A stretch of DNA of 64,000 bases from NCBI GenBank assembly GCA_903856085.1, contig CAIOAT010000013.1, positions 103,430 to 167,429 of the forward strand. The letters are read 5' to 3'. The translations under genes were made by a program, and so were the position numbers. Position 1 is the first letter of the stretch. Every line of letters starts with the position of its first letter. Below the pieces are notes generated by a model. It did no database searches and had not been told where the DNA came from. It saw nothing but the letters and a program-made list of their open reading frames with translations. The DNA comes from Candidatus Omnitrophota bacterium. GTDB taxonomy: Bacteria; Omnitrophota; Omnitrophia; Omnitrophales; Aquincolibacteriaceae. Positions 22,935-56,365 of the stretch are shown here, piece after piece.

Positions 22935-23020
22935 TGTTTAAAGTCCTGTTGTCATTAAGGTTGACCAGGAACGCCCCAATTTCAACTGCGTGAAATTGAT
23001 GGGTATTGGGACGATCATGT
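22926..23020. repeat. Palindromic repeat family, copy B (long variant).
   Basis: ACGGTCATTGTTTAAAGTCC...AAGGTTGACCAGGAACGCCCCAATTTCAACTGCGTGAAATTGATGGGTATTGGGACGATCATGTCTGAAGC. The CCCAATTTCA/TGAAATTG stem can form a hairpin. Its terminal ACGnTCAT(T)GT motifs are repeated directly. Confidence 0.7.
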
Positions 23021-25833: not shown

Positions 25834-25940
25834 TGTCTAAAATTCTTTTCTATTACGGTTGGTAATAACCGCCCCAATCTCAGCATTGCTTCGATTGATG
25901 GGTAATGGGACGTTCATTGTTTAAGATTCTATTTTATGGG
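25824..25940. repeat. Palindromic repeat family, copy C (long variant).
   Basis: GGACGGTCATTGTCTAAAATTC...GGTTGGTAATAACCGCCCCAATCTCAGCATTGCTTCGATTGATGGGTAATGGGACGTTCATTGTTTAAGATTC. A direct repeat of ~22 nt sits at both ends. It is nearly identical to copy G inside waaA. Confidence 0.7.
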
Positions 25941-27226: not shown

Positions 27227-27302
27227 GGGTTAACGGTACAATCCAATTCTTAGCAATCTCCGCAAACCGGAAATTGGGGCAGTCCTCGTCAACCCTTCAG
27301 GG
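27227..27302. repeat. Palindromic repeat family, copy E (both arms present).
   Basis: GGGTTAACGGTACAATCCAATTCTTAGC...GGAAATTGGGGCAGTCCTCGTCAACCC. The arms are imperfect reverse complements. Confidence 0.65.
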
Positions 27303-28814: not shown

Positions 28815-28912
28815 TTCTGTAAGGTTGACCATGCCCGCCCAATTCTCCGCCTTCTTTTGATTCACGGTGAATTGGACGGTCATGCTTACCCGTTGATTTG
28901 GAATTGAATAGT
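28815..28912. repeat. Palindromic repeat family, copy D.
   Basis: AAGGTTGACCATGCCCGCCCAATTCTCCGCCTTCTTTTGATTCACGGTGAATTGGACGGTCATGCTTACC. It lies in the ahcY leader. It also contains an ATGACCGTC-initiated 28-codon frame that ends on the ahcY ATG. Confidence 0.65.
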
Positions 28913-39965: not shown

Positions 39966-40790
39966 TTAGTCTTCCGTCACGACGCATTTTTTTAATGCGA
40001 TCAATTTTTTGAGCAAGGGTTCCAATTGAGAAAGAGCGAGAGCATTCGGTCCGTCTGAAAGCGCCTTTTTAGGATCTTCATGGATCTCCATAAAAACGGC
40101 ATCCGCTCCGGCTACAACCGCACACCGCGAGAGCGTTGGAATGAATTCCGACATGCCGCCTGACGAAGTGCCCTTCCCTCCAGGAATCTGCACTGAATGT
40201 GTGGCGTCGTAGATCACAGGATACCCGAATCCGCGCATGATGGGAATCGCGCGAAAATCATTCACGAGGTTATTGTACCCAAAACTTGTACCACGTTCCG
40301 TGAGAAGAATCTTCTTGCATCCGACCTCTTCAAGTTTTTGAATCATGTTCTTGGCTTCCCACGGAGAAAGGAATTGTCCTTTTTTCACGTTCACGATCCT
40401 CCCCGTCGCCGCAGCCGCGAACAAAAGGTCGGTCTGGCGACAAAGGAACGCCGGGATCTGGAGAATATCCGCAACTTCGGCCACCGGCTCCGCTTGTTCG
40501 GGCGTGTGAAAATCCGTGAGAATGGGAAGTTTGAACTCTTTTTTGACGCGCGCAAGGATCGCGAGCCCCTTTTTAAGACCCGGACCGCGAAAGGAACGGA
40601 TCGAGGAGCGATTCGCCTTATCAAAGCTCGCTTTAAAAACATACGGGATCTTGAGCGCGCGGGTAATTTCCGAGATCTTTTTCGCAAGCCGCAGCGTGCC
40701 TTTTTCATCTTCAATCACACAGGGCCCGCCGATCAGGACGAGCTTTCGAGGATCTCCGAAGACGATGGATCTCAGAGCGACCTTATGCAT
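39966..40790 (-). CDS. kdsA: 2-dehydro-3-deoxyphosphooctonate aldolase (Kdo8P synthase).
   Basis: KdsA conservation ([32 protein letters not shown]). Confidence 0.85.
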
Positions 40791-42474
40791 GGACCTCACC
40801 CTCCTCCTGAGCAGGAACTTCCACCTTGGCGATCTCTGGCTTCACCGGAACGGGAATCTTCAAACCATGCGCTTCCTGAAAAGCGAGCGCGGCACGAATA
40901 AATTCGCGAAAAAGCGGGTGCGCCCTGTCCGGTTTGGATTTGAACTCCGGATGAAATTGGACCGCAAGGAACCAGGGGTGATCGTCTAATTCGATCATCT
41001 CAACCAGTTTTCCATTTGGGGAAACGCCGGAAAGTTTCATTCCGGCTTTCTGGAATTTTTCTCGATATTCGTTATTGAACTCATAACGGTGGCGATGACG
41101 CTCTGAAATCTCATCCAGTTTGTAAGCTTTGTGCGCAAGCGTTTCTTTTTTGACCTGGCAAGGATACGCACCAAGACGCATCGTGCCGCCCATCTCCTTC
41201 ACATTCTGCTGTTCCTCGAGAAGACTGATCACCGGGAAGGGCGTCTTCTTGTTGAACTCGGTGGAATGCGCATTTTTCATATCCATCACATTGCGTGCAA
41301 ATTCAATCGCCGCGCACTGCATCCCGAGACATATCCCAAAGAAAGGGATTTTTTTCTCGCGGGCAAATTGGATCGCCTTGAGTTTTCCTTCGATCCCACG
41401 GCTCCCGAACCCTCCCGGAACCAAGATCCCGGAGACCCCCTTCAGCTGCTCTAGTGAACGCGCCGTTTCAAGCTTTTCGGAATTGATTCGTTTGATCACG
41501 ACGCCCGTGTCGTTGGCAATTCCGCCGTGCTTCAAAGATTCATAAATGGACTTGTAAGCATCCTGCAGCTCGACATATTTACCGACCACGGCGATCTTGA
41601 CCAGATGCCTGGGATGAAGTGCCTTGTCGACCACGTTCTTTTTCCATTCGTGAAGACTGCCCGCTTTGTATTCGATCTTGAGCTTTTGGCAAATAACTTT
41701 GTCGATCCCCTCCGCTTTGAACATGAGAGGGCATTCATAGATCGAGGCCACATCGCGCGCTTCGATCACGGCTTCCGGTTCCACGTTACAAAAAAGCGCG
41801 ATCTTGTCCTTCATCGCTTGGTCGATCTTTTTTTCGGTACGACAGATCAAGATGTCCGGCTGGATACCAATCTCACGCAAGGTTCCGACGCTATGTTGCG
41901 TGGGCTTGGTCTTGAGCTCGCCCGCGGCTTTAAGATAAGGAACGAGTGTGAGATGGATGAAAAGAGAATTCTCGCGACCAACTTCATGACGATACTGCCG
42001 GGCGGCCTCCAGGAACGGTAAGGATTCGATATCGCCGGCCGTGCCTCCGACCTCCGAAATCACAACGTCATAACGTTTGTTGCGTGAAACATTCCGGATG
42101 CGTTCTTTGATCTCATTGGTAATATGCGGTACCACTTGCACCGTACCGCCCAGATAATCCCCTCGTCGTTCTTTGGCGATCACGGTGTAATAGACCTGAC
42201 CACTGGTCACATTGTTCTCGCGGCCCAGCGTACTATGCGTGAACCGTTCGTAATGCCCGAGGTCCAGATCTGTCTCTGCCCCATCATCGGTCACATAGAC
42301 CTCACCATGTTGAAAAGGATTCATCGTGCCGGGATCCACGTTCAGATAGGGGTCGAGCTTCTGGATCGCGACCTTGAGACCCTTTGCTTCAAGGATCTTT
42401 GCGATCGATGCAGATGCAATGCCTTTTCCAAGGGAAGAAACGACGCCGCCTGTTACAAAAATATGCTTTGGCAT
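40783..42474 (-). CDS. pyrG: CTP synthase.
   Basis: [19 protein letters not shown]-terminus and the glutamine amidotransferase GICLGMQ motif. 563 aa. Confidence 0.9.
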
Positions 42475-42520
42475 TTTAAATTCCTCACGAGGTTTGCCTG
42501 TCCTGACATCTATTTTATTT

Positions 42521-43318
42521 TCATCGAAGATTGCCAGGGCTAGTCCAATTAACCTTCAACTCTTTTGACGGAGAATTGGCCTGTAAACGCTTTTCGACTT
42601 CCTGCAGATCCTCTTCCGTGTCCACGCTGATGAAATCATACGCCGTTTCGATCACGCGAATGGAACGGCCCCTTTCGAGGATCCTGAGCTGCTCTAATTT
42701 CTCGGTATTTTCCAGGATTCCAGGCTCCCAAGCAACAAATTTCAAAAGAAATTCGCGCCGATATCCGTAAACTCCCAGATGTTTCAAAAAACTGAACGCA
42801 CAATTTTGTTTTCCTTGAAAGAACGGGATGGCCGCGCGTGAAAAATAAAGCGCGTTCCCCTCCGCGTCACAAACGATTTTAACAACATTGGGATTCTCAT
42901 AACTTTCCTTGTCCGTCATCCGCACGGCCAGGGTCAGGACTTCCACATCCTTCGCTCGTTCAAAAATGCTCACCATCTCGTCAAGCGCCTTCGGGTCCAC
43001 GAGAGGCTGATCGCCCTGAATATTGATCACCAGTTCCTGTTTGAAACGACCCATGACTTCCGCAATCCTCGAGGTCCCGTTCGGATGGTCTTTGCGCGTC
43101 ATGAAAGCCTTACCACCAAACCCTTCAACGCATTGCTGGATACGCGTGTCGTCGGTGGCTACGATCACATCCTCAAGCTTTTTCGCCTGTCTCGCGCGTT
43201 CCCAAACATGCTGGATCATGGGCTTGCCGCCGATGGAACGCAGGATCTTTTCGGAAAGGCGCGTGGAACCTAAACGTGCGGGGATAACACCGAGGGCTTT
43301 CATATTCTCTAGGCTCAT
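42521..43318 (-). CDS. kdsB: 3-deoxy-manno-octulosonate cytidylyltransferase (CMP-Kdo synthetase). Its C-terminal tail is encoded by a repeat copy.
   Basis: [18 protein letters not shown]-terminus. The C-terminal [17 protein letters not shown] is encoded by repeat copy H2. Confidence 0.85.
42527..42582. repeat. Palindromic repeat family, copy H2 (short variant), overlapping the kdsB 3' end.
   Basis: GATTGCCAGGGCTAGTCCAATTAACCTTCAACTCTTTTGACGGAGAATTGG. It is related to copies at 48655 and 46160, and to copy D. Confidence 0.6.
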
Positions 43319-44334
43319 GCCTTCCGGATCGCTTCTTCGAGCTCTCCGGGAGCAACCGTCGCGGTACCGAGTTTACCGACCACAATACCAGCAGCGAGAT
43401 TCGATATCTTCGCGGCCTCTTGCATTTTAGCACCTGCCGCCAACGCAAGCCCGAGTGTCGCGATCACCGTATCCCCGGCGCCTGAAACATCGTAAACTTC
43501 GCGCGCGGCGGTCGGCACCTTGGTCAGCTTTTTATTTTTTTCGAAAAGCGCCATACCATCTTCACCGAGCGTAATCAACACAGAATCGAGTTTTAATTTT
43601 TTCATCAACCCCCAGCCGACCGTTTCCAATTCCGGTGTTTTGTAACACGATCCATGCGTCCGTTCATAACCGATAAAGGCCTCGCTCCGGTTCGGAGTGA
43701 TGCAGGTTACGCCCTGGTAATAAACAAAATGTTTTTCCTTCGGATCCACGAGCACGGGCTTCCTGAACTTTTTGGCAAGACGAACGATCTCCCTTAAAAG
43801 AAAAGGCTGCATGACGCCTTTACCGTAATCTTCAAGGATCACAACATCCATGCGTTTGATATTCTCACGAACGAATTTCAGGATTTTTAGAAGGTCGGCC
43901 TTGGAGACATCTTCGGTCTTTTCACGGTCAAAACGAACGACTTGCTGGGAATGCGCGATCACACGGGTCTTGAGGGACGTCGGACGTGTCGGATCATAAA
44001 CGATCCCGCCCGTTTCGATCCCCTGTTTGCGCATCACCTTAAGCAACATGCGCCCGTAAAGATCGCGTCCTACCACACCGCAAGGGCAAACCTGTCCCTG
44101 AAGAGAGCGAATATTGTTGGCCACGTTGAGCGACCCGCCTGGCATATAGGATTCCCGCTCGACTTTGACGACCGGAACCGGCGCCTCAGGGGAAATGCGC
44201 TTGACGCTGCCCCAAACAAACTGGTCCAGAATAAAGTCTCCGATCACGAGGATACGCGCTTCTTTGAACCTCTCGATGATCTCGAGAAAACGTCTTTTCT
44301 CTAAGCTGTTAAGCGGTAAAGATGTGGTTTTCAT
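43315..44334 (-). CDS. D-glycero-beta-D-manno-heptose 7-phosphate kinase (RfaE/HldE domain I, PfkB family). No adenylyltransferase domain is attached.
   Basis: Ribokinase-like fold: ILVIGDFILDQF, GGSLNVANN, DVSGAGDTVIATL. The start was taken at the MKTTSLP ATG. Confidence 0.7.
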   Translation of the reverse strand: MKTTSLPLNSLEKRRFLEIIERFKEARILVIGDFILDQFVWGSVKRISPEAPVPVVKVERESYMPGGSLNVANNIRSLQGQVCPCGVVGRDLYGRMLLKVMRKQGIETGGIVYDPTRPTSLKTRVIAHSQQVVRFDREKTEDVSKADLLKILKFVRENIKRMDVVILEDYGKGVMQPFLLREIVRLAKKFRKPVLVDPKEKHFVYYQGVTCITPNRSEAFIGYERTHGSCYKTPELETVGWGLMKKLKLDSVLITLGEDGMALFEKNKKLTKVPTAAREVYDVSGAGDTVIATLGLALAAGAKMQEAAKISNLAAGIVVGKLGTATVAPGELEEAIRKA

Positions 44335-44563
44335 TGTCCCTTTTTTAAAAAAAGGACGAGCACATGATGCACATTCTGATTTAAAAAAGAAATCAGTGCC
44401 AGTCCCGGTTGGGGCGATCAAGGAAGGCCGTATGATAACACCCCTTGCCGAGGGTGTCAATGAAAGGAAAGCTCTTTAACTTGTTGCAATTAAAAGGGTT
44501 AGAGAATGAAGACGCCGTGTGTTGCCTTTTGGCATTTCCTCATGCCAGCTCGGGGTCAGAAAG

Positions 44564-44851
44564 TCACTTTTTTGCTGTGGGACAAGCAGAGCAATCGCCG
44601 GAACAGGATGGGGCTGCGGGAGCTTCCTTTTTGGGGACGTCGTTTTTGGCTGACTCCTTGTAACCCTTGGAACGATAATCGGTCTGATAGAAGCCGCTCC
44701 CTTTAAAAAGCACCCCCGCTCCGCCGGAGATCAGACGTTCGGCCTTGGCCTTCCCGCATTTTGGACATTTCTTGATGGCTTTTTCGGTCATGGACTGGTA
44801 TTTTTCGAACCGATGGCCACATGCCCCGCATTCATACTCATAAGTCGGCAT
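44564..44851 (-). CDS. FmdB-family zinc-ribbon protein.
   Basis: MPTYEYECGACGHRFE...CPKCG. Two CxxC pairs. 95 aa. Confidence 0.6.
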   Translation of the reverse strand: MPTYEYECGACGHRFEKYQSMTEKAIKKCPKCGKAKAERLISGGAGVLFKGSGFYQTDYRSKGYKESAKNDVPKKEAPAAPSCSGDCSACPTAKK

Positions 44852-44893
44852 TAAAGGGTCTCTCCTTTGAAGACACGCATTATAGTCCTGATA

Positions 44894-44943
44894 CCTATCG
44901 ATTTCAACGGAGTTGAAATCGGGGCAATCCTTGTCAACCGTTC
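44894..44943. repeat. Palindromic repeat family, copy F (short variant with a perfect GATTTCAACGGAGTTGAAATC palindrome).
   Basis: CCTATCGATTTCAACGGAGTTGAAATCGGGGCAATCCTTGTCAACCG. Confidence 0.65.
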
Positions 44944-44990
44944 AAGAAAAGAATCCGAGACAAGGACAGGGAGAAAAGAAATAATTTCAA

Positions 44991-45794
44991 TCAATTCGCC
45001 GGAGCCTGTCCGGGATCGTAGCCGGCAAGCGTCGCGACGACTTCACCCAGGACGGGAACCTTGACCTTCATCACAAGCGGAATGCGGCGCTCGTCCATAC
45101 TCATCCAACCACGGACTTTTCCGCGCCTGACAAAAAACCCTTCGAACAAAATGATCGGTTCGATCTCAACCGCCTGAAAAACGCCCACAGGGTCGATCTT
45201 CATTTCTTTGACGCCATGCGCAACCACTTCAAGATCCCAGTTTTTTTCGTCCGCGTTCACTGGGATCAGCGTCTTGGAATTCGGCTTCAGATCCTGGAGC
45301 CGGAGCCAGTAGCAGCAGGAGATCTGGTCCTGAACATGCTGAGGAATGAACATTTCTTTTCGACTGTTGTCCTTCCGGGAATAAAAGAGGCCGATATGTT
45401 TGCTCTGATCGTATTCCATCGACTCGTCCGTCCAGTAGCTACCCTCTTTAATCTTTTTTTCATAGCGAAGAGAGTCAAAATGTTCGGCATCGATATAGGT
45501 GTGGTGCGTATCCCGAACCTTGTAGATCCAGTCGAGGATCGGTCGCGACCGGATATTGATCTCGATGTGATAAGCATCGCGGCCGTTCACTTTGACAAGC
45601 TCTTTCACCTCGGAAACTGCTTCCCCCACGGTGATTCCAAGATAACTGACCTCGAATTTTATTTTCTCCCCGAGAAATATTTTTGCGGCAGATTTTTCCG
45701 AAGGCGCAAAAACCCGCCCCTTTTCTTGGGCAGAACTGATGGGAGCAAGAAGTACCAGCGTTAAAAAAAAGAGCGCTGCTTTTTTCATGGGCAT
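44991..45794 (-). CDS. Secreted hypothetical protein with a signal peptide, possibly DUF3108-like.
   Basis: N-terminal signal peptide MPMKKAALFFLTLVLLAPISSA. 267 aa. The family assignment is tentative. Confidence 0.45.
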   Translation of the reverse strand: MPMKKAALFFLTLVLLAPISSAQEKGRVFAPSEKSAAKIFLGEKIKFEVSYLGITVGEAVSEVKELVKVNGRDAYHIEINIRSRPILDWIYKVRDTHHTYIDAEHFDSLRYEKKIKEGSYWTDESMEYDQSKHIGLFYSRKDNSRKEMFIPQHVQDQISCCYWLRLQDLKPNSKTLIPVNADEKNWDLEVVAHGVKEMKIDPVGVFQAVEIEPIILFEGFFVRRGKVRGWMSMDERRIPLVMKVKVPVLGEVVATLAGYDPGQAPAN

Positions 45795-46564
45795 CAGTTC
45801 CGGATAGTCCCGTCAAGGCCGATCACGACCCTCTTAATGGCAAGGCGTGTCCCGGAGAGTTCAACCGCTTCCTGAACCATGCGAAAGAGCCCCGAACAGC
45901 ACGGCACTTCCATGATCACCACGGTAAGTGAATAAATAATGTTATTCTTGAGGAGTTCGGCGATCTTTTCGACATACTCGCCAGTTTCATCCAGCTTGGG
46001 ACAGGCAATGACGAGTCGCCTCCCTTTCAGCATATCCTGATGAAAACTTCCAAGCGTAAAGGCCGTACAGTCCGCTGCGATCAAAAGATCGCACTCCTTG
46101 AAATACGGCGCAACCGGCGAGATCAGATGAAGCTGGATCGGCCATTGGCTGAGCTCGGAGGGCGCGGGACCCGTCCCTTGAACCTTTGATTCTGTGGATG
46201 GAGAATGCGGCTTGATTTCGCGGGCCATGGAACCCGGACAACCGCCAAAATGCGGTGCGTGACCGGTGCCATGGAGTGACGCCACCCCATGAACTTTTTG
46301 CGCAGCCTCAGAACCTTGGGTCTTCAACACGTGATCGAAAGCGGCCTTGGGATCATAGTCGTTGCTGTCTCTTTCGATGATCTTGAGCGCGTCGACAGGA
46401 CAAACATCCAGGCAGGCTCCCATCCCATCACAAAAGATCTCTTTAACGAGCACGGCCTTCTTATGTTCATCCAGCACCAACGCGCCTTCCGCACAGGCCT
46501 TGGTGCAAAGCCCGCACCCATTACATTTTTCACGATCGATCTCAATGATCTTACGTTTTGCCAT
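45794..46564 (-). CDS. 2x[4Fe-4S] ferredoxin-domain protein with an uncharacterised Cys-containing C-terminal domain. It carries an in-frame repeat insertion.
   Basis: CNGCGLCTKACAEGA and CDGMGACLDVCPVDA motifs. The internal HSPSTESKVQGTGPAPSEL segment is encoded by repeat copy H3. Confidence 0.5.
   Translation of the reverse strand: MAKRKIIEIDREKCNGCGLCTKACAEGALVLDEHKKAVLVKEIFCDGMGACLDVCPVDALKIIERDSNDYDPKAAFDHVLKTQGSEAAQKVHGVASLHGTGHAPHFGGCPGSMAREIKPHSPSTESKVQGTGPAPSELSQWPIQLHLISPVAPYFKECDLLIAADCTAFTLGSFHQDMLKGRRLVIACPKLDETGEYVEKIAELLKNNIIYSLTVVIMEVPCCSGLFRMVQEAVELSGTRLAIKRVVIGLDGTIRN
46160..46212. repeat. Palindromic repeat family, copy H3, in frame inside a coding sequence.
   Basis: GGGACCCGTCCCTTGAACCTTTGATTCTGTGGATGGAGAATGCGG aligns to GGCCAGTCCCATTAACCTTTGATTCTTTTGAAAGAGAATGGGA at 48667-48709. 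Confidence 0.55.
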
Positions 46565-46633
46565 AAAAGCTCCTTTAACCTAGCCGCTAGCGTTTAACCA
46601 AAACTCCAGGCTTTCCCTATCCCCGGATCCCGC

Positions 46634-47677
46634 TCACACCCCGAGTGTCAGAAGGTCGCGCACCGCGGCATGCACATCTTCTACCGCAATTTCATCAATA
46701 TAGGTGAACTTCCGTTCGGCGGCGGGAATATGGGAAACATCCTTCGCGACCACACGGGAATTCTTTCCGAGAGGCTGCCAGCGTTTGGGCCCAAGACCCG
46801 GTTCATACCTCCCGAAAATAGAAACAACCGGCGTGCCGACCGCCGTCGCGATATGCACCGGCCCAGAATCATTGGAAATCAGTAAAGCTGATCGCTTCAA
46901 AAGCACTCCCAGCATTCCGAGTGAAAGTCTGCCGCTCAAATCGAAGACCGGGACCGAGGTATTTTTTATCAACCTTTCAATAGTGGCCCGATCTTGAGAG
47001 GTCCCTATCGCGAGAAAAATGCTGGGACGTTCCTTTTGAAGGCACGTCACAAGTTCGGCAAAACGCTCCGCCGGCCACATTTTGGTGACATCGCTTGCCG
47101 AAGGGTTCAAAGCAATCCACGGAAGATCATTTGGAACTTTATGGAACAAGCGCATGCTCTCAAACGACTGCACGGAGCGATCCGTGATGGGGAAAAAAGT
47201 TTCAATCTCTCGAGGCGGAGTCACACCCAGGGGCTCCAGAAGTTCGAAGAGATATTCGGCCTCCTGTTTGAGACCTTCTTTTTTGTTATACGGATGGACT
47301 TTCGTCAAAGCCCAAGAAGCGCGACGGTCGTATCCGATCCGAACCGGAATCCCCGCAAACCACGCGGCCAGATGCATCCGGTTCGTACCATGGCAATGAA
47401 TCACAACATCAAACCTCTTGCTGCGAAGTTTTTGGCTAAAGAGGAATTGCCCCCAAAGACCTCGTTCGCTTCCTTTTTTATCGTAGAGGATCACTTCATC
47501 CAGATAAGGATTCCCCTGAACGATCTCATGATGTTCGCGGAATACAACCGTTGCGATCCAGGCCTTCGGGAATTGTTCGCGTAACGCCTTAAAAAGCGGC
47601 GTTGTAAGGACCAGGTCCCCGATGCGATCTGTGCGCGTAATGAGAATGCGCGGGGCGTCAGGCAGCTTGATTGGCAT
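46634..47677 (-). CDS. Glycosyltransferase family 9 (LPS heptosyltransferase-like).
   Basis: GT9 pattern: ILITRTDRIGDLVLTTPLFKALREQFP N-terminus and a C-terminal GTSQD-type region. 347 aa. Confidence 0.75.
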   Translation of the reverse strand: MPIKLPDAPRILITRTDRIGDLVLTTPLFKALREQFPKAWIATVVFREHHEIVQGNPYLDEVILYDKKGSERGLWGQFLFSQKLRSKRFDVVIHCHGTNRMHLAAWFAGIPVRIGYDRRASWALTKVHPYNKKEGLKQEAEYLFELLEPLGVTPPREIETFFPITDRSVQSFESMRLFHKVPNDLPWIALNPSASDVTKMWPAERFAELVTCLQKERPSIFLAIGTSQDRATIERLIKNTSVPVFDLSGRLSLGMLGVLLKRSALLISNDSGPVHIATAVGTPVVSIFGRYEPGLGPKRWQPLGKNSRVVAKDVSHIPAAERKFTYIDEIAVEDVHAAVRDLLTLGV

Positions 47678-48620
47678 TCAGAAGCTCCAGAGAAAGTTCG
47701 ACCACTTTTTCAGGTTTCAATCCGTGAAAACAACTCCGTTCAGCACGGGGCAACCTCTCGGATCCACAAGCGCAGTCTTGAGCCTCTCCTCGCGCGACGC
47801 GGAATTTCGGACCCCCATGCCCATATTTCTCATGGTCCGTCGGACCGAAGATCCCGACAGTCGGCGTACCCAATTCGAACCCAAGATGCATGATCGCGCT
47901 GTCGTTGGCGACCACAAGCGAAGCCTTCGCGATAAGCGCCGCAGTCTCGGGCAAAACCAGGTCCCCGCAAAGAACCCCGACGCTCTCGGGAAGTTCCGCC
48001 AGAATGCTGTCGGCCACTGGCCTCTCATTAAGAGTCCCCACCAAAAGAATCTTTTTTCCGGTCTTCGCATGAAGCTTCCGGATCACTTCCTTAAAATATT
48101 GAACCGGCCACCGTTTTCTCTCGCTGGCCGCCCCTGCCGCCACAAGGATCCATCCCCTCTTTTCCTGGATCCCTATAACGTCCAAAGCGCGCATCGCAAA
48201 AACCTCATCCGCTTTGTTAAAGAAAAGAAAAGAAGACGGAACGGGAATATCGGATTCCACCCCCGCAAGCATTTCGAGATGACGATCTCGCATGTTGACC
48301 CTGGTGAATTTTCTGAAAAGCGGGGTCCTTTTCTTGCAGGAAACCAAAAACGGGATCACGGTATTTCGCAGGTCCACAACGCAGTCGTATTTTACCTTGC
48401 GCAGTTCCGCAATGAATTTCAATTTTTGTCCCAAGGAAGCTTTCTTATCGTAGATGACGGTCTTATAGATGTCGGGGCTTCTCTGCAGAACGCTCCGCGC
48501 ACGCGGTCCGACCACTACCGTGAGCCGCGCCTCGGGATATTTCCGAACAAGGGCCATGATCACCGGCGTCGTCAGGATCACATCCCCGAAATTGCTTAAT
48601 GTCACGACGAGAATATTCAT
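47658..48620 (-). CDS. Glycosyltransferase family 9 (heptosyltransferase-like).
   Basis: MNILVVTLSNFGDVILTTPVIMALVRKYPEA N-terminus. The start was taken at the MNILVV ATG, overlapping the upstream stop as ATGA. Confidence 0.75.
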   Translation of the reverse strand: MNILVVTLSNFGDVILTTPVIMALVRKYPEARLTVVVGPRARSVLQRSPDIYKTVIYDKKASLGQKLKFIAELRKVKYDCVVDLRNTVIPFLVSCKKRTPLFRKFTRVNMRDRHLEMLAGVESDIPVPSSFLFFNKADEVFAMRALDVIGIQEKRGWILVAAGAASERKRWPVQYFKEVIRKLHAKTGKKILLVGTLNERPVADSILAELPESVGVLCGDLVLPETAALIAKASLVVANDSAIMHLGFELGTPTVGIFGPTDHEKYGHGGPKFRVARGEAQDCACGSERLPRAERSCFHGLKPEKVVELSLELLNANQAA

Positions 48621-49723
48621 GTTTTCCTCAGGTCCTGGCATCCATTTTCTTTCCGTAAAAGGTTGCCAGGGCCAGTCCCATTAACCTTTGATTCTTTTGA
48701 AAGAGAATGGGAGAGGATCTTTTCGATCGCCGTCAAAACCTCCTCCGGAGTAATATGCGAAAGCCAGCCTTCGGCCGGAAGGTTCTTACCGAAAAAAGGG
48801 ACCACATAACCTGGGGGAACATATTGTAGTACAAGGCTCTCGCCTCTTCCACGGGGTCCGGTGAGTTTTGGATCGGTAGGACCAAAAAGAGCGATGACTG
48901 GAGCACCGACACCGGAAGCAATATGCATAGGTCCGGAATCGCCACTCACAAGACACGCGGCCTGCTCATAAATAGCCGCCGAAACCCCGAGACTGGTCTT
49001 TCCCACGAACGAGAGAAAACGCGCCTTTTTTACTTTTCCAGAAAAGGCCTCGAAGAGCGCCTCATCTTGCCGCGAGCCTGTCACCACGACAGGCAGGCCT
49101 CGCGTTTCGTGGATTTTGTCGGCGAGCTCCGCAAAATATGCTGGAGGCCAACGCTTCGGCTCCCAATTCGCCCCAAGATGAAAACAAATAAAAGAACCTT
49201 TTTTCTCAAGGCCTTTGTCCTTTAAGAGCCGTAACGCCAGGTCCCGGTCTTCTTTTTTGTAATAAAATGTATACGCCGGAGCTTGAGGGATCTCAAACCC
49301 TGCACGACGCATTAAATCAAGAAAATAGTCCAATTGATGCATTCGCTGGGACGGTTCCGAAATCGCCTGGGTTAAAAAAAACGTTCGCCCCTTGCCGAAT
49401 CCGATCCGTTCCTTGACCCCTGCCAGCATTAAAAGCAAAGCCCGGGTTCTGGAACGGTGGAAAAGATACCCCTGATCCCACGGTCCCTTTTTCCCGAGCT
49501 CGAAAGCGAACTGGATCCTTGGGAAAAGCGGTCGGTGCGTTGTCTTTTCATCGAAAGGCATGAATCCGGAGACCGCAGGATGAGCCTCGAGAATCTCGCG
49601 ACAACGCTCAGGAGCGACGCAAGTGATCGACGCCTCCGGGTATTTTTTTTTGATGAGATCCAGCGCAGGCATCTGGAAAAGCAGGTCCCCGAGCCAATTT
49701 TTCATGACGACAACAATCTTCAT
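48617..49723 (-). CDS. Glycosyltransferase family 9 (heptosyltransferase-like) with a repeat-encoded C-terminal tail.
   Basis: MKIVVVMKNWLGDLLFQMPALDLIKKKYPEA N-terminus. The C-terminal ...SKESKVNGTGPGNLLRKENGCQDLRKT is encoded by repeat copy H1. Confidence 0.75.
   Translation of the reverse strand: MKIVVVMKNWLGDLLFQMPALDLIKKKYPEASITCVAPERCREILEAHPAVSGFMPFDEKTTHRPLFPRIQFAFELGKKGPWDQGYLFHRSRTRALLLMLAGVKERIGFGKGRTFFLTQAISEPSQRMHQLDYFLDLMRRAGFEIPQAPAYTFYYKKEDRDLALRLLKDKGLEKKGSFICFHLGANWEPKRWPPAYFAELADKIHETRGLPVVVTGSRQDEALFEAFSGKVKKARFLSFVGKTSLGVSAAIYEQAACLVSGDSGPMHIASGVGAPVIALFGPTDPKLTGPRGRGESLVLQYVPPGYVVPFFGKNLPAEGWLSHITPEEVLTAIEKILSHSLSKESKVNGTGPGNLLRKENGCQDLRKT
48655..48715. repeat. Palindromic repeat family, copy H1, forming the 3' end of a GT9 gene.
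   Basis: AAGGTTGCCAGGGCCAGTCCCATTAACCTTTGATTCTTTTGAAAGAGAATGGGAGAGG. Confidence 0.6.
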
Positions 49724-51816
49724 AGTGAGAGCGCCCTTTGACAATGTTCAAACACTTCTTCCACAGAAATATGGGTAAGGCAGGCCTTCGTTTCCTTAGC
49801 TTTGCAAACGCCATCGTAACAAGGCTGGCAAGGCAAATGATGCGAGAGCACATCGATCTTTTTCCCGGGCGGGACATGCCGCTTGGCGTCCGTGGGGCCA
49901 AACAAGGCCACGATCGGGACATTCATGGCCGCGGCCATATGAAGCGGCGCCGTGTCCCCTGTCACGACCAGATGAAGCTGTTTGAAAAAAGCCGGCAATT
50001 CCTCCAACGCGGTTTTGCCGATGAGATCGAGGATCTTGCCGGACCCGAAGGAATAGAACGGTCGCCCGAGATCCGCTTCGTCAGAAGACCCGATCAGGAC
50101 GATCCGCGCATCATATTTCTCAAGGAGCCGTTTCGCAAGAGAGACAAAATGTTCCTGAGGCCAACGTTTGCTCGGCCAATTTGGGCTGGATCCCATCACA
50201 AACCCAATGATCCGGGTCGATTCCTTGGGCTCGAGCGTGCCGATCATCTGATTTGCTTTTTCAAGGCTTTCGGATTTTGGCCAGAGTTCCAGCGTGTCAT
50301 CGAATTTAATAACCCCGGCCTTGGACAGCACGCGAAACTGATGGCGAAGAGGCGAATCCCCGACCTCGAAGGTCCTGTCAGGCCGGTTCAGCAAGAATCC
50401 CCATCTTCCGCGTGCAAACCCGAAACGCTGGACCGCCCCACCGAGATAGGCCAGAAGATGTGTCCACTTATTGTTGTGAAGATCGATAGATATATCAAAA
50501 CCTTCGCGGCGAACGCGACGAGCGGTCTTCAAAAGATAAAAAAGATTCGAAAGCTTCTTCCGGTCCACCAGGATCATGTCATCCAGGTAAGGACATGCCG
50601 ACACGATCGGCGCGAGTTTGCGATCCACAAGGAGAGTGATCGAGGCGTCGGGAAAACGTTCCTTGAGCATTCGCAGACTCGGTACGACCAGGATGAGATC
50701 CCCCATCGCCCCGAGCTTGATCACAAGGATTTTCCGGCGTTTACGAACCTCCTGATAGACCTCAAGCGTCTTCCGGACCATTTGCTCCAGGTTGAATTTC
50801 TCCTCCACTTTTTTTCGCAGTTTCACCGCAAACGCCTTGGCCTTATCCCGGTCCGTCAGAAGCTCGTACATCGCCTCAGCCATCGCAGGAATATTCCTCG
50901 GTGGAAAAAGCAAGCCGTTCTCATTATTGTCGATGATGTCTGGCACGCCGCCCAGCCAGGTCGCAGTCACAGGAGTCCCCACAGCACCCGCTTCAATGAT
51001 CACACGACCGAAAGGTTCGGGAATAAGCGAAGACAGCACCAAAAGATCAGACTCGGCCAAAAGTCCCGCCACATCCCGCGTCGGCGGAAGGATCTTGACG
51101 CAACTCTCGAGCCCGAATTGGTGCACGGTTTTTTTCATCAGATCCGTGTAACGGTGTTTGCCGCGCCCCTCGGAACCGACGATCCATACTTCAAAATGGG
51201 AAAGCCGGCTGCGCAACAAATGAATGGCTTTGAGAAATTCCACCTGCCCCTTGGCCGGAGAAAAACGTCCGATATGGATGATCCTCATCGGCCCTGAATG
51301 CTTTTCGAATTTCGCGAACGAGAAAGTAAATTGCGAAAGATCAACGCCGCGCGGAATCAATCGGATGCGATCCGGTGGAACATTGAATTCGTCGATCATT
51401 CTCCGGCCGATCGCGTGAGACGCTACGATCACGCGCTTGCCCCACCCCATCACAAAACTCATCAGATGAACAGAGTAATGTCCGTGACAGGTCGTAATAA
51501 AGGGTATGCCGGTTTTACGGGCCGCAAGCCACCCGAGCCAGGCCGGAACGCGGCTGCGCGCATGAACGATGTCCACGCGCTCCCGCTGGATGATCTTCAC
51601 AAGTTCTTCGACCAGAAATAAACCCGCCAGAGATTTCTGATGCACGGGCAGTCCGTAATGCGGGATTCCGATCTTCTGAAGTTCGGCCACAAGCGACCCG
51701 CCGGATGAGACGACCACCGTCGCGTGCCCTTCCTTTTTCATGGCTCGCGCCAGATCCACCACCCCACGCTCGGTCCCGCCAAGCTCAAGAGCCGGCAAAA
51801 GCTGCATCACCTTCAT
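49720..51816 (-). CDS. Fusion protein: N-terminal GT4 (family-1-fold) glycosyltransferase plus C-terminal GT9 heptosyltransferase-like domain.
   Basis: N-terminal half has the GT4 E-x7-E region (EPFGRVIIEAGAVGTPV). C-terminal half has the GT9 pattern (ILVIKLGAMGDLILVVPSLRMLKERFPDA). 698 aa. Confidence 0.7.
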   Translation of the reverse strand: MKVMQLLPALELGGTERGVVDLARAMKKEGHATVVVSSGGSLVAELQKIGIPHYGLPVHQKSLAGLFLVEELVKIIQRERVDIVHARSRVPAWLGWLAARKTGIPFITTCHGHYSVHLMSFVMGWGKRVIVASHAIGRRMIDEFNVPPDRIRLIPRGVDLSQFTFSFAKFEKHSGPMRIIHIGRFSPAKGQVEFLKAIHLLRSRLSHFEVWIVGSEGRGKHRYTDLMKKTVHQFGLESCVKILPPTRDVAGLLAESDLLVLSSLIPEPFGRVIIEAGAVGTPVTATWLGGVPDIIDNNENGLLFPPRNIPAMAEAMYELLTDRDKAKAFAVKLRKKVEEKFNLEQMVRKTLEVYQEVRKRRKILVIKLGAMGDLILVVPSLRMLKERFPDASITLLVDRKLAPIVSACPYLDDMILVDRKKLSNLFYLLKTARRVRREGFDISIDLHNNKWTHLLAYLGGAVQRFGFARGRWGFLLNRPDRTFEVGDSPLRHQFRVLSKAGVIKFDDTLELWPKSESLEKANQMIGTLEPKESTRIIGFVMGSSPNWPSKRWPQEHFVSLAKRLLEKYDARIVLIGSSDEADLGRPFYSFGSGKILDLIGKTALEELPAFFKQLHLVVTGDTAPLHMAAAMNVPIVALFGPTDAKRHVPPGKKIDVLSHHLPCQPCYDGVCKAKETKACLTHISVEEVFEHCQRALSL

Positions 51817-53762
51817 ATCATGGCTCCCAACCGCTCAGTCAGAGCGTCTTTTTCACGTTGAAGGACTGGCGTTGCCGGTTTCTTAAGAAGTTCAGTCATA
51901 TTTTTTTCCAGATCCGCCAGACCGCTCAAAGTCACAAGTCCGCGTTGAGCAAGGATCTGATGAAAACGGTAATGTTTTTCAGGAAGTTCGCCTTCCCCAA
52001 GGCTCAGAACGATCACACGCTTGCCCGTTCCCACGGCTTCGGAGATCATGGCGAGACTATCCTCCGTCACGATCAGGAGGTCTGCAAGTCCCATCATCCC
52101 CCCGGCTGCGTAAGGCGGATTCTCTTCATTCGCGATCACAAGCAACCGACAGCCAGCCTGCCCGGCAAGATTACTCTTCAAGAAACACTCCACAGGTGCA
52201 GAGGTTCGCCGCGATGTAGTGATCATGAAATCTCCGGCCCGCGAAGCAGCGCGTTTCAAAGTCGAGCAGAGTTTTTCCATGTCTGAGACCATCAGATCAT
52301 AATCACGCGTCGCGCCACCGAGAAACACGGCGATCTTCGGCTTCGTCCCTTCGCCTAGCTTCTCCTGAAGTTGCTGGACGTCCGGACCGCGCTCGTGGGC
52401 CTTGTAACCACTCGGCATGATCACCGAACGCAACGTCCGCTTGGGCACTTGACCGCCGTCATGAGCCGGGACGATCGCAAGATCATAATCTGTCATGCAA
52501 TAAGGAAAAGGCGGATTCATAATGACGATCTTTTTGGCGCCGGTCTCTTGCGCAAGCAGCATCTGCAACGGCGCGAGCCCGGAACCGGCCGCGATAATGA
52601 AATCCGCGTTCGCCTGCTCAATGGCTTTTTGTGTTTCCGGGGTAAAAAAAGGCGCGAGCCAATGAAGCCTCCCCTGGATCCAGGGTTTCATTAGAAATGC
52701 CAGGCAAAACAAGACCGTCCGGTGGAAAGGCGAACGGTATTCAACATAAATCCTTTCCGTTTCAAATTTAAGACCGGCCTGACCGTGGAATTCCTTGAAA
52801 TCCGCGAGTATCTCCGCCACGACCTCCGACTGCTTGAAATGCCCAGCTTTGCCGTCCGAGAGGATCACGATTTTCCTATCCCAACAATATTTCCACCGTT
52901 TATTCTCCCAAAGCCACTGGTTCGGAAATCTCCGGATAAAATCTTCAAGCACCTTCAGATATTGCCGGACCTGAAACTCGATGCGCGCTTGCGGCTCAAG
53001 AGAGGGATCATCCTTCAGAACCTCTCCAGCGTAGACCTCGTGCTCAGGGCCTCCGGTCCTCACGATAAAGAACGGCATAATGAACGCATCCGTACGATGC
53101 GCCAACTGGAAAGCCCCGGTCGGGACCGTGGTCCTCCGACCAAAGAATGGCAGGAGAATCCCTTCGGTCTTACCGGCCGATTGATCACCGAGGACTCCGA
53201 CCATTTGTTTTTCGCGAAGTGCACGGATCAAGGAACGAATGCCCACCCCGCGGCTGATGGAAACCGAGCCGTGACTCTCGCGAAGTTCGTTGATCAATCC
53301 GTTGAGCCTCGGATACCTTTGCTCACGTGTCAACACATGGATCGGTGTACCGCGAAGTCCGGACCAAACCTGCAAAAGCTCCCAATTCCCAAAATGCGCG
53401 GTGATCAGAACCCCGCCATGTCCCGAGCGGAGAAGCTCCTCGTACCGCTCCAGGTTGTGGACCTTGATGTGGAGGTCGTGATGCTTTCGTTCCATCCGCT
53501 TAAAAGACATCACTTCCACAACGGTCTGCCCCAAAAAACCGAAATGATCGCGCACGGCTTTCCATCGCTCCCCCGGAGTCAGCTGACTCCCAAGTGCGGC
53601 CTTGAGATTGATATAGGCAACGCGTCGCTTTTTTGAAACATAGAATACCCCACGCCCCAAACAATCACCGATCTGGAGACTGAGGGCGAACGGAATACGC
53701 GCGAAAAGAAAAATAAGCGCGCGGGCTGCGAGGCAAGCCATCCGGTCGAGCAGATCTTCCAT
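51813..53762 (-). CDS. Fusion protein: LpxL/HtrB-like lipid A acyltransferase domain plus C-terminal ELM1/DUF1022-like domain.
   Basis: The N-terminal ~290 aa are LpxL-family (ITAHFGNWELL, GVLGDQS). The C-terminal ~350 aa contain KIAVFLGGATRDYDL, typical of ELM1-like proteins that recur in LPS clusters. The domain call on the second half is tentative. Confidence 0.55.
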   Translation of the reverse strand: MEDLLDRMACLAARALIFLFARIPFALSLQIGDCLGRGVFYVSKKRRVAYINLKAALGSQLTPGERWKAVRDHFGFLGQTVVEVMSFKRMERKHHDLHIKVHNLERYEELLRSGHGGVLITAHFGNWELLQVWSGLRGTPIHVLTREQRYPRLNGLINELRESHGSVSISRGVGIRSLIRALREKQMVGVLGDQSAGKTEGILLPFFGRRTTVPTGAFQLAHRTDAFIMPFFIVRTGGPEHEVYAGEVLKDDPSLEPQARIEFQVRQYLKVLEDFIRRFPNQWLWENKRWKYCWDRKIVILSDGKAGHFKQSEVVAEILADFKEFHGQAGLKFETERIYVEYRSPFHRTVLFCLAFLMKPWIQGRLHWLAPFFTPETQKAIEQANADFIIAAGSGLAPLQMLLAQETGAKKIVIMNPPFPYCMTDYDLAIVPAHDGGQVPKRTLRSVIMPSGYKAHERGPDVQQLQEKLGEGTKPKIAVFLGGATRDYDLMVSDMEKLCSTLKRAASRAGDFMITTSRRTSAPVECFLKSNLAGQAGCRLLVIANEENPPYAAGGMMGLADLLIVTEDSLAMISEAVGTGKRVIVLSLGEGELPEKHYRFHQILAQRGLVTLSGLADLEKNMTELLKKPATPVLQREKDALTERLGAMI

Positions 53763-54811
53763 TAATTTCTCACTCCCAGTAAACGAAAAAGTCGGTCCGT
53801 GAGGATCTCTTCTCCCGACACGACTCGAAGTCGCGCGGCAAGGACCAGCGGGTTCAGCGTCTCAGTGATCAACTCGCGGGAACGGTAAAAATCCTTTTCC
53901 GTCGTGATGATCTCCTCAGCACCCGCTGATTGCGCGACCTCTTTGATCTTCAGAAGCTCTTCTTTGGTGTATTCATGATGGTCCAGGAATTCGAAGTTCC
54001 GGACGGTCTTGAGTTGAAAACGTTGCAGGACGAGCTGAAAGGATCTTGGGGTCCCCACCGCCGCGAAGGTTGCGACGCGCCGACCGGTCATTTTCTCGAT
54101 CGATGTCCGGACTTTGGTCTTGGCACGATAAAGGAACAACACTTCCATCATGGTCTCGACCATTTGCGCCTGCGGCGCCAGAACCGCGATCTTCTCCTTA
54201 AGCTTCTTGAGTTCCTCGGGGCTTACAAGATTCACATGGGTAAGCACGATAATGGCCGCACGCTTCATGACGGTGAGCGGTTCACGCAAAATACCCCGCG
54301 GAATAAGCTTTCCATTGCCGAAGGGGTTTAGCGAATTGACAACCACGATATCGACATCCCGGTGGAGGGCCTGATGCTGAAGCCCGTCGTCGAGGATGGC
54401 GATATCCACATGCCGTTTCTCGGCCTTGACGCGCTGGGCGACCTTCGCGCGATCCTTGCCGACACCGATGACCGCGGTCGGAAGATGATTCTGAAGTTCC
54501 ACCGCCTCATCATGACTGTAACCACGCGTGAGAACCAATGGCACGCGCCGGTGCATACCGATCTTGCGGGCGAGATATTCTACGAAAGGTGTTTTGCCCG
54601 TGCCTCCCCAGGTGAGATTGCCAACGCTGATGACCGGATAAGGAAGACGTTTGCGTGCCAGCACCTTGTTCTCATAAAGCCAGCGGAATGTCCGGACCCC
54701 GTAGCCGTATCCCCATGCCGCGAAAGAAAGAAGCGCCAAGAGAACTCCGCTCGTCGGGTCATTTTGTTTGTCCTCCGCCAAGAGACGAAAGTAATTCTTC
54801 ATGCTGTCCAT
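53762..54811 (-). CDS. lpxK: Tetraacyldisaccharide 4'-kinase.
   Basis: VISVGNLTWGGTGKTP P-loop. 349 aa. It overlaps the waaA 3' end by ~40-50 nt. Confidence 0.8.
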   Translation of the reverse strand: MDSMKNYFRLLAEDKQNDPTSGVLLALLSFAAWGYGYGVRTFRWLYENKVLARKRLPYPVISVGNLTWGGTGKTPFVEYLARKIGMHRRVPLVLTRGYSHDEAVELQNHLPTAVIGVGKDRAKVAQRVKAEKRHVDIAILDDGLQHQALHRDVDIVVVNSLNPFGNGKLIPRGILREPLTVMKRAAIIVLTHVNLVSPEELKKLKEKIAVLAPQAQMVETMMEVLFLYRAKTKVRTSIEKMTGRRVATFAAVGTPRSFQLVLQRFQLKTVRNFEFLDHHEYTKEELLKIKEVAQSAGAEEIITTEKDFYRSRELITETLNPLVLAARLRVVSGEEILTDRLFRLLGVRN

Positions 54812-56297
54812 TTCTGTTGATCCTTTCTTGAGAATACCGGCCTCGAAGAAACGTCAGAATCCACCCGGCCTGACGCTTGCTGGCACCCCGTAAACGGTTG
54901 ACGATCTGAAAAGCCCTTTGCCCCATTTCATGACGCCTGCTCTCATTAGCGAGGAGCTCCGCCGCCGCGGACGACAGTTCGTCCGGAGCCGAGATCCTGA
55001 GAGCGCCACCGTCATGATCGAGCTGGTGGTAGATCTTGTGAAAGTTAAAAACATGCGACCCATGGAGTATTGCTTTACTAAAACGCGCGGGCTCGATCGG
55101 GTTCTGACCTCCGTGAGGGATCAGACTCCCGCCCATGAACACAAGATCCGCGATCTGGTACAGATTCTTGAGAACACCTAATTGGTCCAGGATCTGCACC
55201 GCAGGCCCTGAACCTTCTTTTTTCCTTGCCCCAACTTTCATCATGTTTTCATGACTGGTCGTTGGGGCTAGCCCAATGAACCTTTCATTATTTTGATGGA
55301 AATTTGGGCTTGTTGATAGAACCACACTAAAACCATATTTCTCCAATTGCTTTAAAAGCCCTTGCGAACGCTCAATGTGACGCGGCGCAAAGATCAGCTT
55401 GAGCGTCGGAAACCGCTCTCGCAACGCTTGAAAAGCAACCATGAGCGTTTCCTCTTCCCCCGGATGCGTGCTTCCCGCGATCCACACAAGATCGTCCGGT
55501 GCATATCCCCAGACCTGCCGCAGGCCGGCCGCATCCGCCCAAACTTTTCCCTTCTTTTCTAAAATAGTATTTTGGACGGCCCCAATCCCCGCTTCGCTTC
55601 GATTGATCGGTATTGGGACCGCCGCGCTGGCATCGGCCCATTCCGCCTGGTCAAACTTCATATTCCCCATGTCCCGAACAGATTCTTCCGCAACACCCAA
55701 TCCCCGGAAACGGCCCGCATCCTCCTCAGACTGAGCGAGCACAAAATCCAGCTTTCCCCAGAGCGGTTTAAAAAGCCACGGAAAAATCTTGTATCTTTTG
55801 AACGAACGCTCCGAAAGACGGGCATTGATCACGCCCACCGGGATATTCCGTTGTTTGGCTTCGGTCAAGAGGTTCGGCCAGATCTCGGTCTCTACGAGCA
55901 GCAAGCAGACCGGCTTAAAAAGATCGAGAAAGCGCTTCACAATCCATGTTAAATCAAACGGAAAATAGCAGACGTGGACCCGTTCCCCCGCGAATTTCTT
56001 CGCGATCCTCTGTCCGGTCGGCGTCACAGTCGTCAGCAGCAATTCATATTCCGGGGCGGAGGCAAGCCATTCCTGCATGAACTTTTCAACGGCCATCACC
56101 TCCCCCACGCTCACAGCATGTAGCCAGATAATTTTCTTGTCGGAAAATTTTCCGGCCCATTCCTTCGGAAAAATCCCTCGGCGTTCCCGCCAAAGCGCGT
56201 CCGGATCTTCAGCTTGGCGGAGTTTGATTAAAAAAATCGGAAGATAAAGAATCCCGAACACCGCGAATGCCAGATTGTATAAGAATGTTCTTATCAT
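54759..56297 (-). CDS. waaA: 3-deoxy-D-manno-octulosonic acid transferase (Kdo transferase) carrying an in-frame ~27-aa repeat-encoded insertion.
   Basis: KdtA conservation: HAVSVGE, LLLTTVTPTG, VWIAGSTHPGEE, FAPRHIER. It is 512 aa against a typical ~425. The segment AAVPIPINRSEAGIGAVQNTILEKKGK between KFD and VWIAGSTH is encoded by repeat copy G. Confidence 0.8.
   Translation of the reverse strand: MIRTFLYNLAFAVFGILYLPIFLIKLRQAEDPDALWRERRGIFPKEWAGKFSDKKIIWLHAVSVGEVMAVEKFMQEWLASAPEYELLLTTVTPTGQRIAKKFAGERVHVCYFPFDLTWIVKRFLDLFKPVCLLLVETEIWPNLLTEAKQRNIPVGVINARLSERSFKRYKIFPWLFKPLWGKLDFVLAQSEEDAGRFRGLGVAEESVRDMGNMKFDQAEWADASAAVPIPINRSEAGIGAVQNTILEKKGKVWADAAGLRQVWGYAPDDLVWIAGSTHPGEEETLMVAFQALRERFPTLKLIFAPRHIERSQGLLKQLEKYGFSVVLSTSPNFHQNNERFIGLAPTTSHENMMKVGARKKEGSGPAVQILDQLGVLKNLYQIADLVFMGGSLIPHGGQNPIEPARFSKAILHGSHVFNFHKIYHQLDHDGGALRISAPDELSSAAAELLANESRRHEMGQRAFQIVNRLRGASKRQAGWILTFLRGRYSQERINRNGQHEELLSSLGGGQTK
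55560..55625. repeat. Palindromic repeat family, copy G (long-variant core), in frame inside waaA.
   Basis: GGACGGCCCCAATCCCCGCTTCGCTTCGATTGATCGGTATTGGGACCGCCGC. Compare intergenic copy C, CCGCCCCAATCTCAGCATTGCTTCGATTGATGGGTAATGGGACG. Confidence 0.65.
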
Positions 56298-56365
56298 GGA
56301 TTACCGTCGTGTTCTTCGCGCTATGAAAAGCGTGATGCGTAAATCATGGATAGGGTCCGCATTCG

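Follow-up and report, generated by a model that had tools for sequence, protein, structure and literature searches.

How unrelated proteins come to share a short peptide, read in the same frame from similar DNA, is the question raised by a 64,000-nucleotide stretch of Candidatus Omnitrophota contig CAIOAT010000013.1 (hereafter the window, meaning the whole stretch that was analyzed). A preliminary description of this DNA had reported three related repeats within minus-strand open reading frames (ORFs), with a shared orientation and frame, in the kdsB gene, a ferredoxin-domain gene and a GT9 heptosyltransferase gene. This observation was confirmed, and the recurring peptides quoted for the three unrelated proteins are encoded exactly as they were given. 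The repeats were found to be copies of an 84-nt unit, here called E1, which very probably represents a group of short, non-autonomous mobile elements inserted in frame into many unrelated Omnitrophota genes. That E1 is an insertion was demonstrated by pairs of filled and empty orthologous sites. The common frame appears to be explained by the codon phase of the CAAG target together with avoidance of stop codons, the target phase being the main cause.

Copies and architecture of E1

The copies first described are real, and their extents had been drawn too small. The first occupies positions 42497-42584 of the window (minus strand), covering the 3' end of kdsB (42521-43318, minus strand) and the kdsB-pyrG spacer. 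The second lies at 46165-46214 (minus strand) within a gene for a 4Fe-4S ferredoxin-domain protein (45794-46564, minus strand), and the third, which is full-length, at 48629-48716 (minus strand) in the third GT9 heptosyltransferase gene (48617-49744, minus strand). A fourth, more diverged copy, which had been overlooked and is read in another frame, was found at 55225-55312 (minus strand) in the gene for the 512-residue KdtA/WaaA. Identity amounts to 80% over 80 nt between the kdsB and GT9 copies and to 80% over 41 nt between the ferredoxin and GT9 copies; with nhmmer E values of 1e-24 to 1e-25, the similarity is far beyond chance.

Alignment of the copies gave the unit CAAG/CCCCATTCTCCATCAAAAGAATCAAAGGTTAATGGGGCTAGTCCTGGCAACCTTTCAGGAAAAGAAAATGGAGGCCAGGG/CAAG (slashes mark junctions here and below) with sharp boundaries. 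Counted with one flanking tetranucleotide, E1 is 84 nt, or 28 codons, long, and the alignment of 19 full-length copies contains no indels. The unit consists of two consecutive stem-loops, CCCCATT...AATGGGG followed by CCTGGC...GCCAGG, with stems of 7-9 bp and loops of about 25 nt. Its ends read CCCCATT... and ...GCCAGGGCAAG and are complementary only at the CCC/GGG tips. The same tetranucleotide stands on both sides of the element, namely CAAG (13 copies), CCTG (the GT9 site) or GCAG (the kdsB site), whereas empty sites contain it once; CAAG forms the 5' junction in 13 of the 19 aligned copies.

Both hairpins are supported by covariation and by folding. Standard pairs occupy 93.8% of the cells, compared with 23-53% in register-shifted controls, compensatory changes were found at six pairs versus 2.3 in shuffled alignments (1/500), and single-strand folding z-scores range from -2.8 to -5.7. 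For example, stem 1 changes from CCCATT/AATGGG in the GT9 copy to CCAATT/AATTGG in the kdsB copy, and stem 2 changes from CCTGGC/GCCAGG to CCCCAAC/GTTGGGG in the KdtA copy, which has retained both hairpins through such changes. Each hairpin module ends in ..GGGGCTAG or ..AGGGCAAG, similar to the preferred target.

In the kdsB copy, the arms of hairpin 1 lie at 42574-42580 and 42544-42550 and those of hairpin 2 at 42533-42539 and 42501-42507 (minus strand), and ACAG stands on either side. In the GT9 copy, the corresponding arms are at 48706-48712 and 48676-48682 and at 48665-48671 and 48633-48639 (minus strand). Its flanks are CCTC and CCTG, and the orthologous filled site L028 (L numbers designate loci from other genomes) has CCTG...CCTG. 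The KdtA copy is flanked by CAAG on both sides and reads SPNFHQNNERFIGLAPTTSHENMMKVGA (also given as SPNFHQNNERFIGLAPTTSHENMM) in the frame called C below. The ferredoxin copy comprises only the left CAAG and the first hairpin, the 3' arm of which has decayed. It encodes K/PHSPSTESKVQGTGP, seen as ...KPHSPSTESKVQGTGPAPSEL... within the protein, in the linker, and is internal as first described.

The hairpin modules are separable. At the kdsB site of L006 (10740-10790), only the first hairpin, about 48 nt, is kept and is read in frame B, and the window ferredoxin copy likewise ends after its first hairpin. Since both copies are cut at this point, the modules can evidently be lost separately.

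Filled and empty orthologous sites

Syntenic loci were compared from relatives whose KdsB is 80-90% identical. Five orthologous filled/empty pairs were obtained; in the four that are internal to genes, the difference is exactly 84 nt. At every site examined, the presence of E1 varies among close relatives.

At the kdsB-pyrG junction, the empty sites (L002, L003, L007 and L008) read CGTTT/GCAG..AACCC, and the kdsB stop codon lies 2 nt before the pyrG ATG. The filled sites in the window and L004 have about 85-90 extra nt, and L006 has the first hairpin only. The most common form of KdsB is the empty one, ending ...RLQANPVRN. The other orthologs carry element-derived tails, which were found in all three sense frames: A (SKE[S/L]KVN...), B (QFSIKRVEG, then stop) and C (ANFHQKS, then stop). 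In the window, the tail and the TGA stop codon (42521-42523) are both provided by E1, as the preliminary description had stated.

The same description had assumed that E1 also sets the stop codon of the GT9 gene and creates a new ATGA overlap with the next gene. Comparison with element-free orthologs showed this to be wrong. Empty sites (L002, L004 and L006) read ...ATCGAAAAAAT/CTTGAGGAAAGCATGAAT, and the window has an additional 84 nt inserted in frame four codons before the ancestral stop, with the original ...LRK(T/A)-stop ending kept; the gene product ends ...SHSLSKESKVNGTGPGNLLRKENGCQDLRKT. Element-free orthologs end ...IEKIL(R/E)KA at the same stop codon and already show the GCATGA stop/start overlap, so that the overlap of GT9 genes 3 and 2 at 48617-48620 (minus strand) is ancestral. 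The downstream GT9 gene has its conserved start at ATG 48618-48620 (MNILVV...). A further in-frame ATG upstream, at 48639-48641, falls within E1, and mechanical ORF calling lengthens this gene by 7 codons (MPGPEEN).

The remaining pairs are a DUF3108 gene, filled in L015 and empty in the window; a second site in the ferredoxin gene, filled in L010 and empty in the window; and a UvrA site, filled in L014 and L043 and empty in L016, L056 and L012.

The ferredoxin copy of the window matched a profile that had been built without it (E=2.2e-5), the match covering only the first half of the element, and L018 contains a full-length E1 at the identical junction, ...ARE(I/F)K/. These two results ruled out chance similarity, which, like a conserved linker, had been considered on account of the equal-length linkers of the orthologs. 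The window copy is best interpreted as a decayed and truncated remnant that has lost its second hairpin together with some of the former linker. In the metagenome contig L021 (476-563), about 90 residues, among them the second Fe-S motif, are missing from the ferredoxin-domain gene, and E1 stands exactly at the deletion joint (..LMLDEYK/E1/RETSGKK..). This suggests that recombination between two E1 copies removed the segment between them.

Reading frame, encoded peptide and fate of the inserts

About 17 independent E1 sites, from several Omnitrophota genomes, were available for a census of reading frames. Sense frame A, in which the AAG of the target is an in-phase lysine codon (xxC-AAG) and the peptide is KPHSPSKESKVNG.SPGNL…, is used at 15-17 of them and frame C at one or two, and no site is read in an antisense frame. 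The shared frame in the window is therefore not a coincidence.

The preliminary description had proposed that only one frame of the element lacks stops and that the insertions read in this frame were the only ones retained, which would make the shared frame a pure survival filter. Filtering by stop codons does take place: all 16 internal copies are open in frame A, with no stops where about 7 would be expected, whereas frame B (19 copies) and two antisense frames are always interrupted. Nevertheless, the E1 consensus is open in three of the six frames; frame C is open in 7 of 19 copies, including the window GT9 copy itself, and antisense frame f1 in 14 of 19, and the KdtA copy is actually read in frame C. 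With other frames open, the single-open-frame mechanism fails on its own terms, and it is an unlikely explanation of the bias as a whole.

The codon phase of the target appears to account for most of the bias. Among CAAG tetranucleotides on the sense strand of window genes, 70% are in the phase that yields frame A, 22% in that of frame B and 8% in that of frame C, so that target phase by itself accounts for 70% frame A; a frame B insertion would bring in a stop codon. The phase counts in the predicted window genes were 210/65/24 for CAAG and 210/24/82 for CTTG. The two equal counts of 210, with phases related by reverse complement, are probably coincidental. A neutral model, in which insertion occurs at any CAAG on either strand and only open products are kept, gave an expectation of 66% frame A, 8% frame C and 26% antisense. 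The observed ratio of 13:1:0 shows an excess of frame A (P=0.026), and among sense copies the ratio of A to C does not deviate (P=0.57). Because 84 nt is divisible by three and one sense frame contains no stops, insertions at an in-phase AAG leave the host frame intact.

Coding could also be incidental to hairpins that serve as an RNA or DNA signal, such as an mRNA stabilizer, a processing site or a translational pause. REP sequences of Escherichia coli have been reported to stabilize upstream mRNA. Compensatory changes have preserved both E1 stems, even those of the old copy in KdtA, and two tail copies in the window, as well as units of the long-variant repeat described below, lie directly upstream of the ribosome-binding site of the next gene. 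However, most copies are located deep within unrelated essential genes and not at cistron boundaries, their presence varies between close relatives, and no Rfam match was obtained either at the gathering threshold for the whole window or at E<=1 for positions 40000-57000. Conservation of the stems would be equally expected if a transposase recognized the hairpins. A signal function as the reason for the presence of E1 is unlikely.

Selection of the 28-residue peptide as a protein module (a linker, tag or modification site) would be compatible with its use of the same frame at nearly all sites, its hydrophilic character and the N-x-S/T motifs of its consensus, KPHSPSKE[S/L]KVNG[A/T]SPGNL.GKENGGQGK. 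However, differences from the consensus are distributed over codon positions 1, 2 and 3 as 54, 31 and 33, which shows no third-position bias, and 17 synonymous changes against 75 non-synonymous ones represent no synonymous excess over the 23% expected at random. Many copies have NGA in place of the NGT motif, the tail is predicted to be disordered, its presence is polymorphic among close relatives, and the hosts, unrelated housekeeping proteins and cytoplasmic enzymes, have nothing in common. The peptide therefore does not appear to be under sequence-level selection, and a selected module is very improbable. At the same time, the 118 differences create not one of the roughly 7 frame A stops expected, which argues against ribosomal bypass or RNA excision. 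Ribosome hopping is known from T4 gene 60 and the mitochondrial byp elements, and the identical codons flanking E1 (AAG...AAG, or CTG...CTG in GT9), with a hairpin starting right after the first, recall it, but a hop from AAG to AAG or removal of the RNA segment is hardly credible, given also the strict 84-nt length without indels in 19 copies and a putative take-off site followed by neither a stop nor a rare codon. The functional peptide module and translational bypass were considered and rejected, as was membership of the REP/RAYT system.

The pattern fits inserts that would be translated as sequence-unconstrained filler, needing only to stay open. In the few hosts examined, the filler falls where it could be tolerated, in loops, linkers and termini. 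In an AlphaFold2 model of KdsB (mean pLDDT 89), residues 250-265 of the tail have pLDDT <50, and the tail is thus predicted to be disordered. The two inserts of KdtA, one of E1 and one of the long-variant type, are exactly the two gaps in its alignment to Aquifex WaaA 2XCI, and the inserts of GltX and of the TrpE/PabB-like protein lie between Pfam domains.

According to the explanation proposed here, E1 would insert into protein-coding genes of an Omnitrophota clade, in most cases immediately behind CAAG. Insertions with AAG as an in-phase lysine codon would keep the host frame and be read as a disordered 28-residue filler, tolerated in loops, linkers or tails. Insertions in a stop frame would survive only at gene ends, where the tail would be replaced and a new stop codon introduced, as in kdsB. 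The common frame would be mostly a by-product of target-site phase and stop avoidance, not of peptide selection. Transposition would presumably take place in trans, through a separate enzyme, and E1 would be nearly neutral for its host.

Several points weigh against this explanation. The absence of antisense copies (0 of 14, P=0.015) is a deficit that target phase does not explain; beyond target phase, the orientation bias requires either that insertion be strand-specific or that the hydrophobic antisense peptide be selected against. The frame census is small, with about 17 sites, several of which share a few genes. That the inserts are translated was deduced and not observed. Mobility was likewise deduced from presence and absence only, no mobilizing enzyme or parent element having been identified and the host genome not having been searched, and at individual sites precise loss instead of gain may have occurred. 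No clean insertion is seen at the window's ferredoxin site, where the orthologs have a linker of almost equal length without the repeat. Finally, hairpin covariation implies a structural constraint, imposed by a transposition machinery or by an RNA or DNA function, and the copies may not be purely neutral.

Distribution, related repeats and known systems

Homologs of KdsB assign the source of the window to Candidatus Omnitrophota. The distribution of E1 was studied by scanning one genome per GTDB species for the exact core pattern. Eleven matches were found; ten were in metagenome-assembled genomes (MAGs) of Omnitrophota or in further MAGs with the full element, and the eleventh, in Roseivirga, lacks flanking element sequence and is probably due to chance. 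A relaxed-pattern scan of metagenomes of the Joint Genome Institute returned roughly half chance matches, which were removed by requiring the flanking CCCATTCTCC context, and all true matches of traceable source came from Omnitrophota. In addition to the four copies in the window, more than 20 were found at other Omnitrophota loci. About 85% of the copies are intragenic, mostly deep within genes, and the approximately 17 independent sites fall in at least 11 protein families. The hosts identified by Pfam are KdtA, GT9 (two proteins, at two different sites), KdsB, GltX, DUF3108, AhpD/CMD-like and TrpE/PabB-like proteins, the ferredoxin-domain protein (Fer4) with three E1 sites, and an ABC-ATPase, assumed to be UvrA, where the sites number at least five and include nested ones. 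A further host was classed as an FmdB zinc-ribbon protein on the basis of its sequence and of the Zn_ribbon_8 annotation of its ortholog, and another (P0122) as a fragment of an SF1-type helicase on the basis of its sequence. A HMMER search of 1.8 billion sequences with the 33-residue window peptide, a short query without statistical power, gave two matches: P0122, a true new host, and P0121, a false match to an unrelated tandem-repeat protein. A homology search that required three shared 5-residue words gave no candidates for a 58-residue frame A query or for a control combining frame C and antisense peptides; as the frame A peptide is present in proteins P0002 and P0006, these negatives are uninformative. 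No paper connecting Omnitrophota with such elements was found in the literature.

Many filled/empty pairs are available in public metagenomes, which makes E1 a tractable system for studying how mobile elements live within essential genes. In practical terms, the inserts lengthen proteins, alter annotated termini and create spurious starts, such as the ATG within the GT9 copy, and can confuse orthology assignment and gene calling in Omnitrophota MAGs.

The window also contains a related hairpin repeat, here called long-variant, in the unit of which GTCCCAAT and ATTGGGGC stand about 25 nt apart; CCTGGTCAACC often comes next. Units were found at 2126-2212 (+), 22962-23019 (-), 25861-25937 (-), 28826-28898 (-), 44883-44936 (+), 27242-27291 (+) and 55569-55629 (-). 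They are mostly intergenic, just upstream of minus-strand gene starts. The unit at 55569-55629 lies in KdtA and is translated ...VPIPINRSEAGIGAVQN..., and 2126-2212 comprises two tandem units oriented opposite to the flanking genes. The intergenic units open with ATG and contain putative ORFs of 26-28 codons, e.g. MNVPLPINRSNAEIGAVITNRNRKEF followed by a stop, which end just before the start of the next gene or overlap it. A repeated start region (TTTAAACAATGACCGTCC-like, including the ATG) at 22924-22950, 25823-25849 and 25907-25933 (minus strand) precedes two genes and one long-variant unit.

In other genomes, the long-variant unit forms a second 84-nt element, E2, encoding SPNTNQFPPCGNWGNPDYPKGKENKSQD. 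E2 is nested within E1 after ..GCTAGTCC in L013, L016, L020 and L063. UvrA-like genes of several Omnitrophota genomes contain multiple and nested E1/E2 inserts, with up to about 95 additional residues at one site (L012, about 3149-3329 and 3977-4064; L016, 359-530 and 1052-1139; L056, 722-985), and E1 in L056 harbors a third, unrelated repeat with the translation ..SLRGARKGDAAISLYKSEIASPPARNDM... It is possible, though doubtful, that E1 and E2 form an actively spreading transposon lineage that colonizes sense ORFs and invades proteins independently of the Rickettsia elements discussed below. Such a lineage would insert after CAAG, possibly by means of an HUH rolling-circle enzyme or another strand-specific enzyme, and its specialization would lie in the insertion chemistry, the exact length of 28 codons and the stop-free sense frame. 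If this were true, E1 and E2 would supply new disordered linkers, for example to UvrA, which in some genomes has grown by about 100 residues in this manner.

Among known repeats, REP/REPIN elements resemble E1 as short hairpin-forming sequences that are at times tandem or mosaic. They are extragenic, G+C-rich tight stem-loops of 20-40 bp tagged with GTAG or CGTC and mobilized by RAYT (PMC3733652). In contrast, the stems of E1 measure 7-9 bp and enclose loops of about 25 nt, E1 is mostly intragenic, and its consensus contains neither tag; REP/RAYT membership was thus ruled out by the missing tag and the location within genes. Classical MITEs, the miniature inverted-repeat transposable elements, were also ruled out, since E1 lacks inverted repeats of at least about 10 nt at its termini, its hairpins being internal to each half.

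Repeat-borne frames fused to host genes have been described for the enterobacterial RU/ERIC elements (Delihas 2007, PMC2759123), pneumococcal BOX/RUP (PMC3049150) and QMITE1/2 of Coxiella (PMC5896051). As in the kdsB gene of the window, insertion at a 3' end replaces the tail and sets a new stop codon, for example in Coxiella pntAA and enhC. However, these repeats are mostly intergenic, with occasional gene overlap, whereas E1 is found predominantly within genes. The MITEs among them have long terminal inverted repeats and the others consist of modular boxes, while E1 has only CCC...GGG at its tips.

IS91-family rolling-circle elements insert next to tetranucleotides of the CAAG/GAAC type without duplication and have the same tetranucleotide at their other end, and miniature derivatives of the family are mobilized in trans (IS801; PMC3189936). 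E1 similarly adjoins a specific tetranucleotide, CAAG in the 13 copies mentioned above, which would mimic a 4-nt direct repeat, and has no real terminal inverted repeats. However, no HUH Y2 transposase or ori91-like end was identified, the whole genome not having been searched, and the GT9 site has CCTG on both sides when filled (L028) and a single CTTG when empty. This has the appearance of a true 4-bp duplication, as would not be expected for IS91. CAAG may be a target duplication or, as in IS91, the element's own end.

The closest resemblance is to the Rickettsia palindromic elements (RPEs), which according to Ogata et al. (2000, Science; 2002, Genome Res), as summarized in PMC10969869 and PMC3184786, are dispersed palindromes translated in frame in many unrelated genes. 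E1 is likewise a dispersed hairpin repeat found in frame in unrelated, often essential genes, where the extra peptide is compatible with the fold of the host protein. Both are small, their presence is polymorphic between related genomes, and a transposase is known for neither. RPEs differ in length (about 105-150 bp, compared with 84 nt) and occur in an obligate intracellular alphaproteobacterium, whereas E1 occurs in Omnitrophota, consists of two separate short stem-loops with CAAG directly repeated at its ends and nests with a second 84-nt element. Unlike that of RPEs, the frame bias of E1 can be traced largely to the codon phase of its target tetranucleotide and not to peptide selection. 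Homology of E1 to RPE-1 to RPE-10 is unlikely, E1 being set apart by phylum, length and architecture. E1 is therefore a second, independent case of gene-invading coding palindromes, not placed among the RPE families. In-frame coding palindromes have hitherto been seen as a peculiarity of Rickettsia, and an unrelated, smaller family in an uncultivated phylum indicates that the phenomenon is more general.

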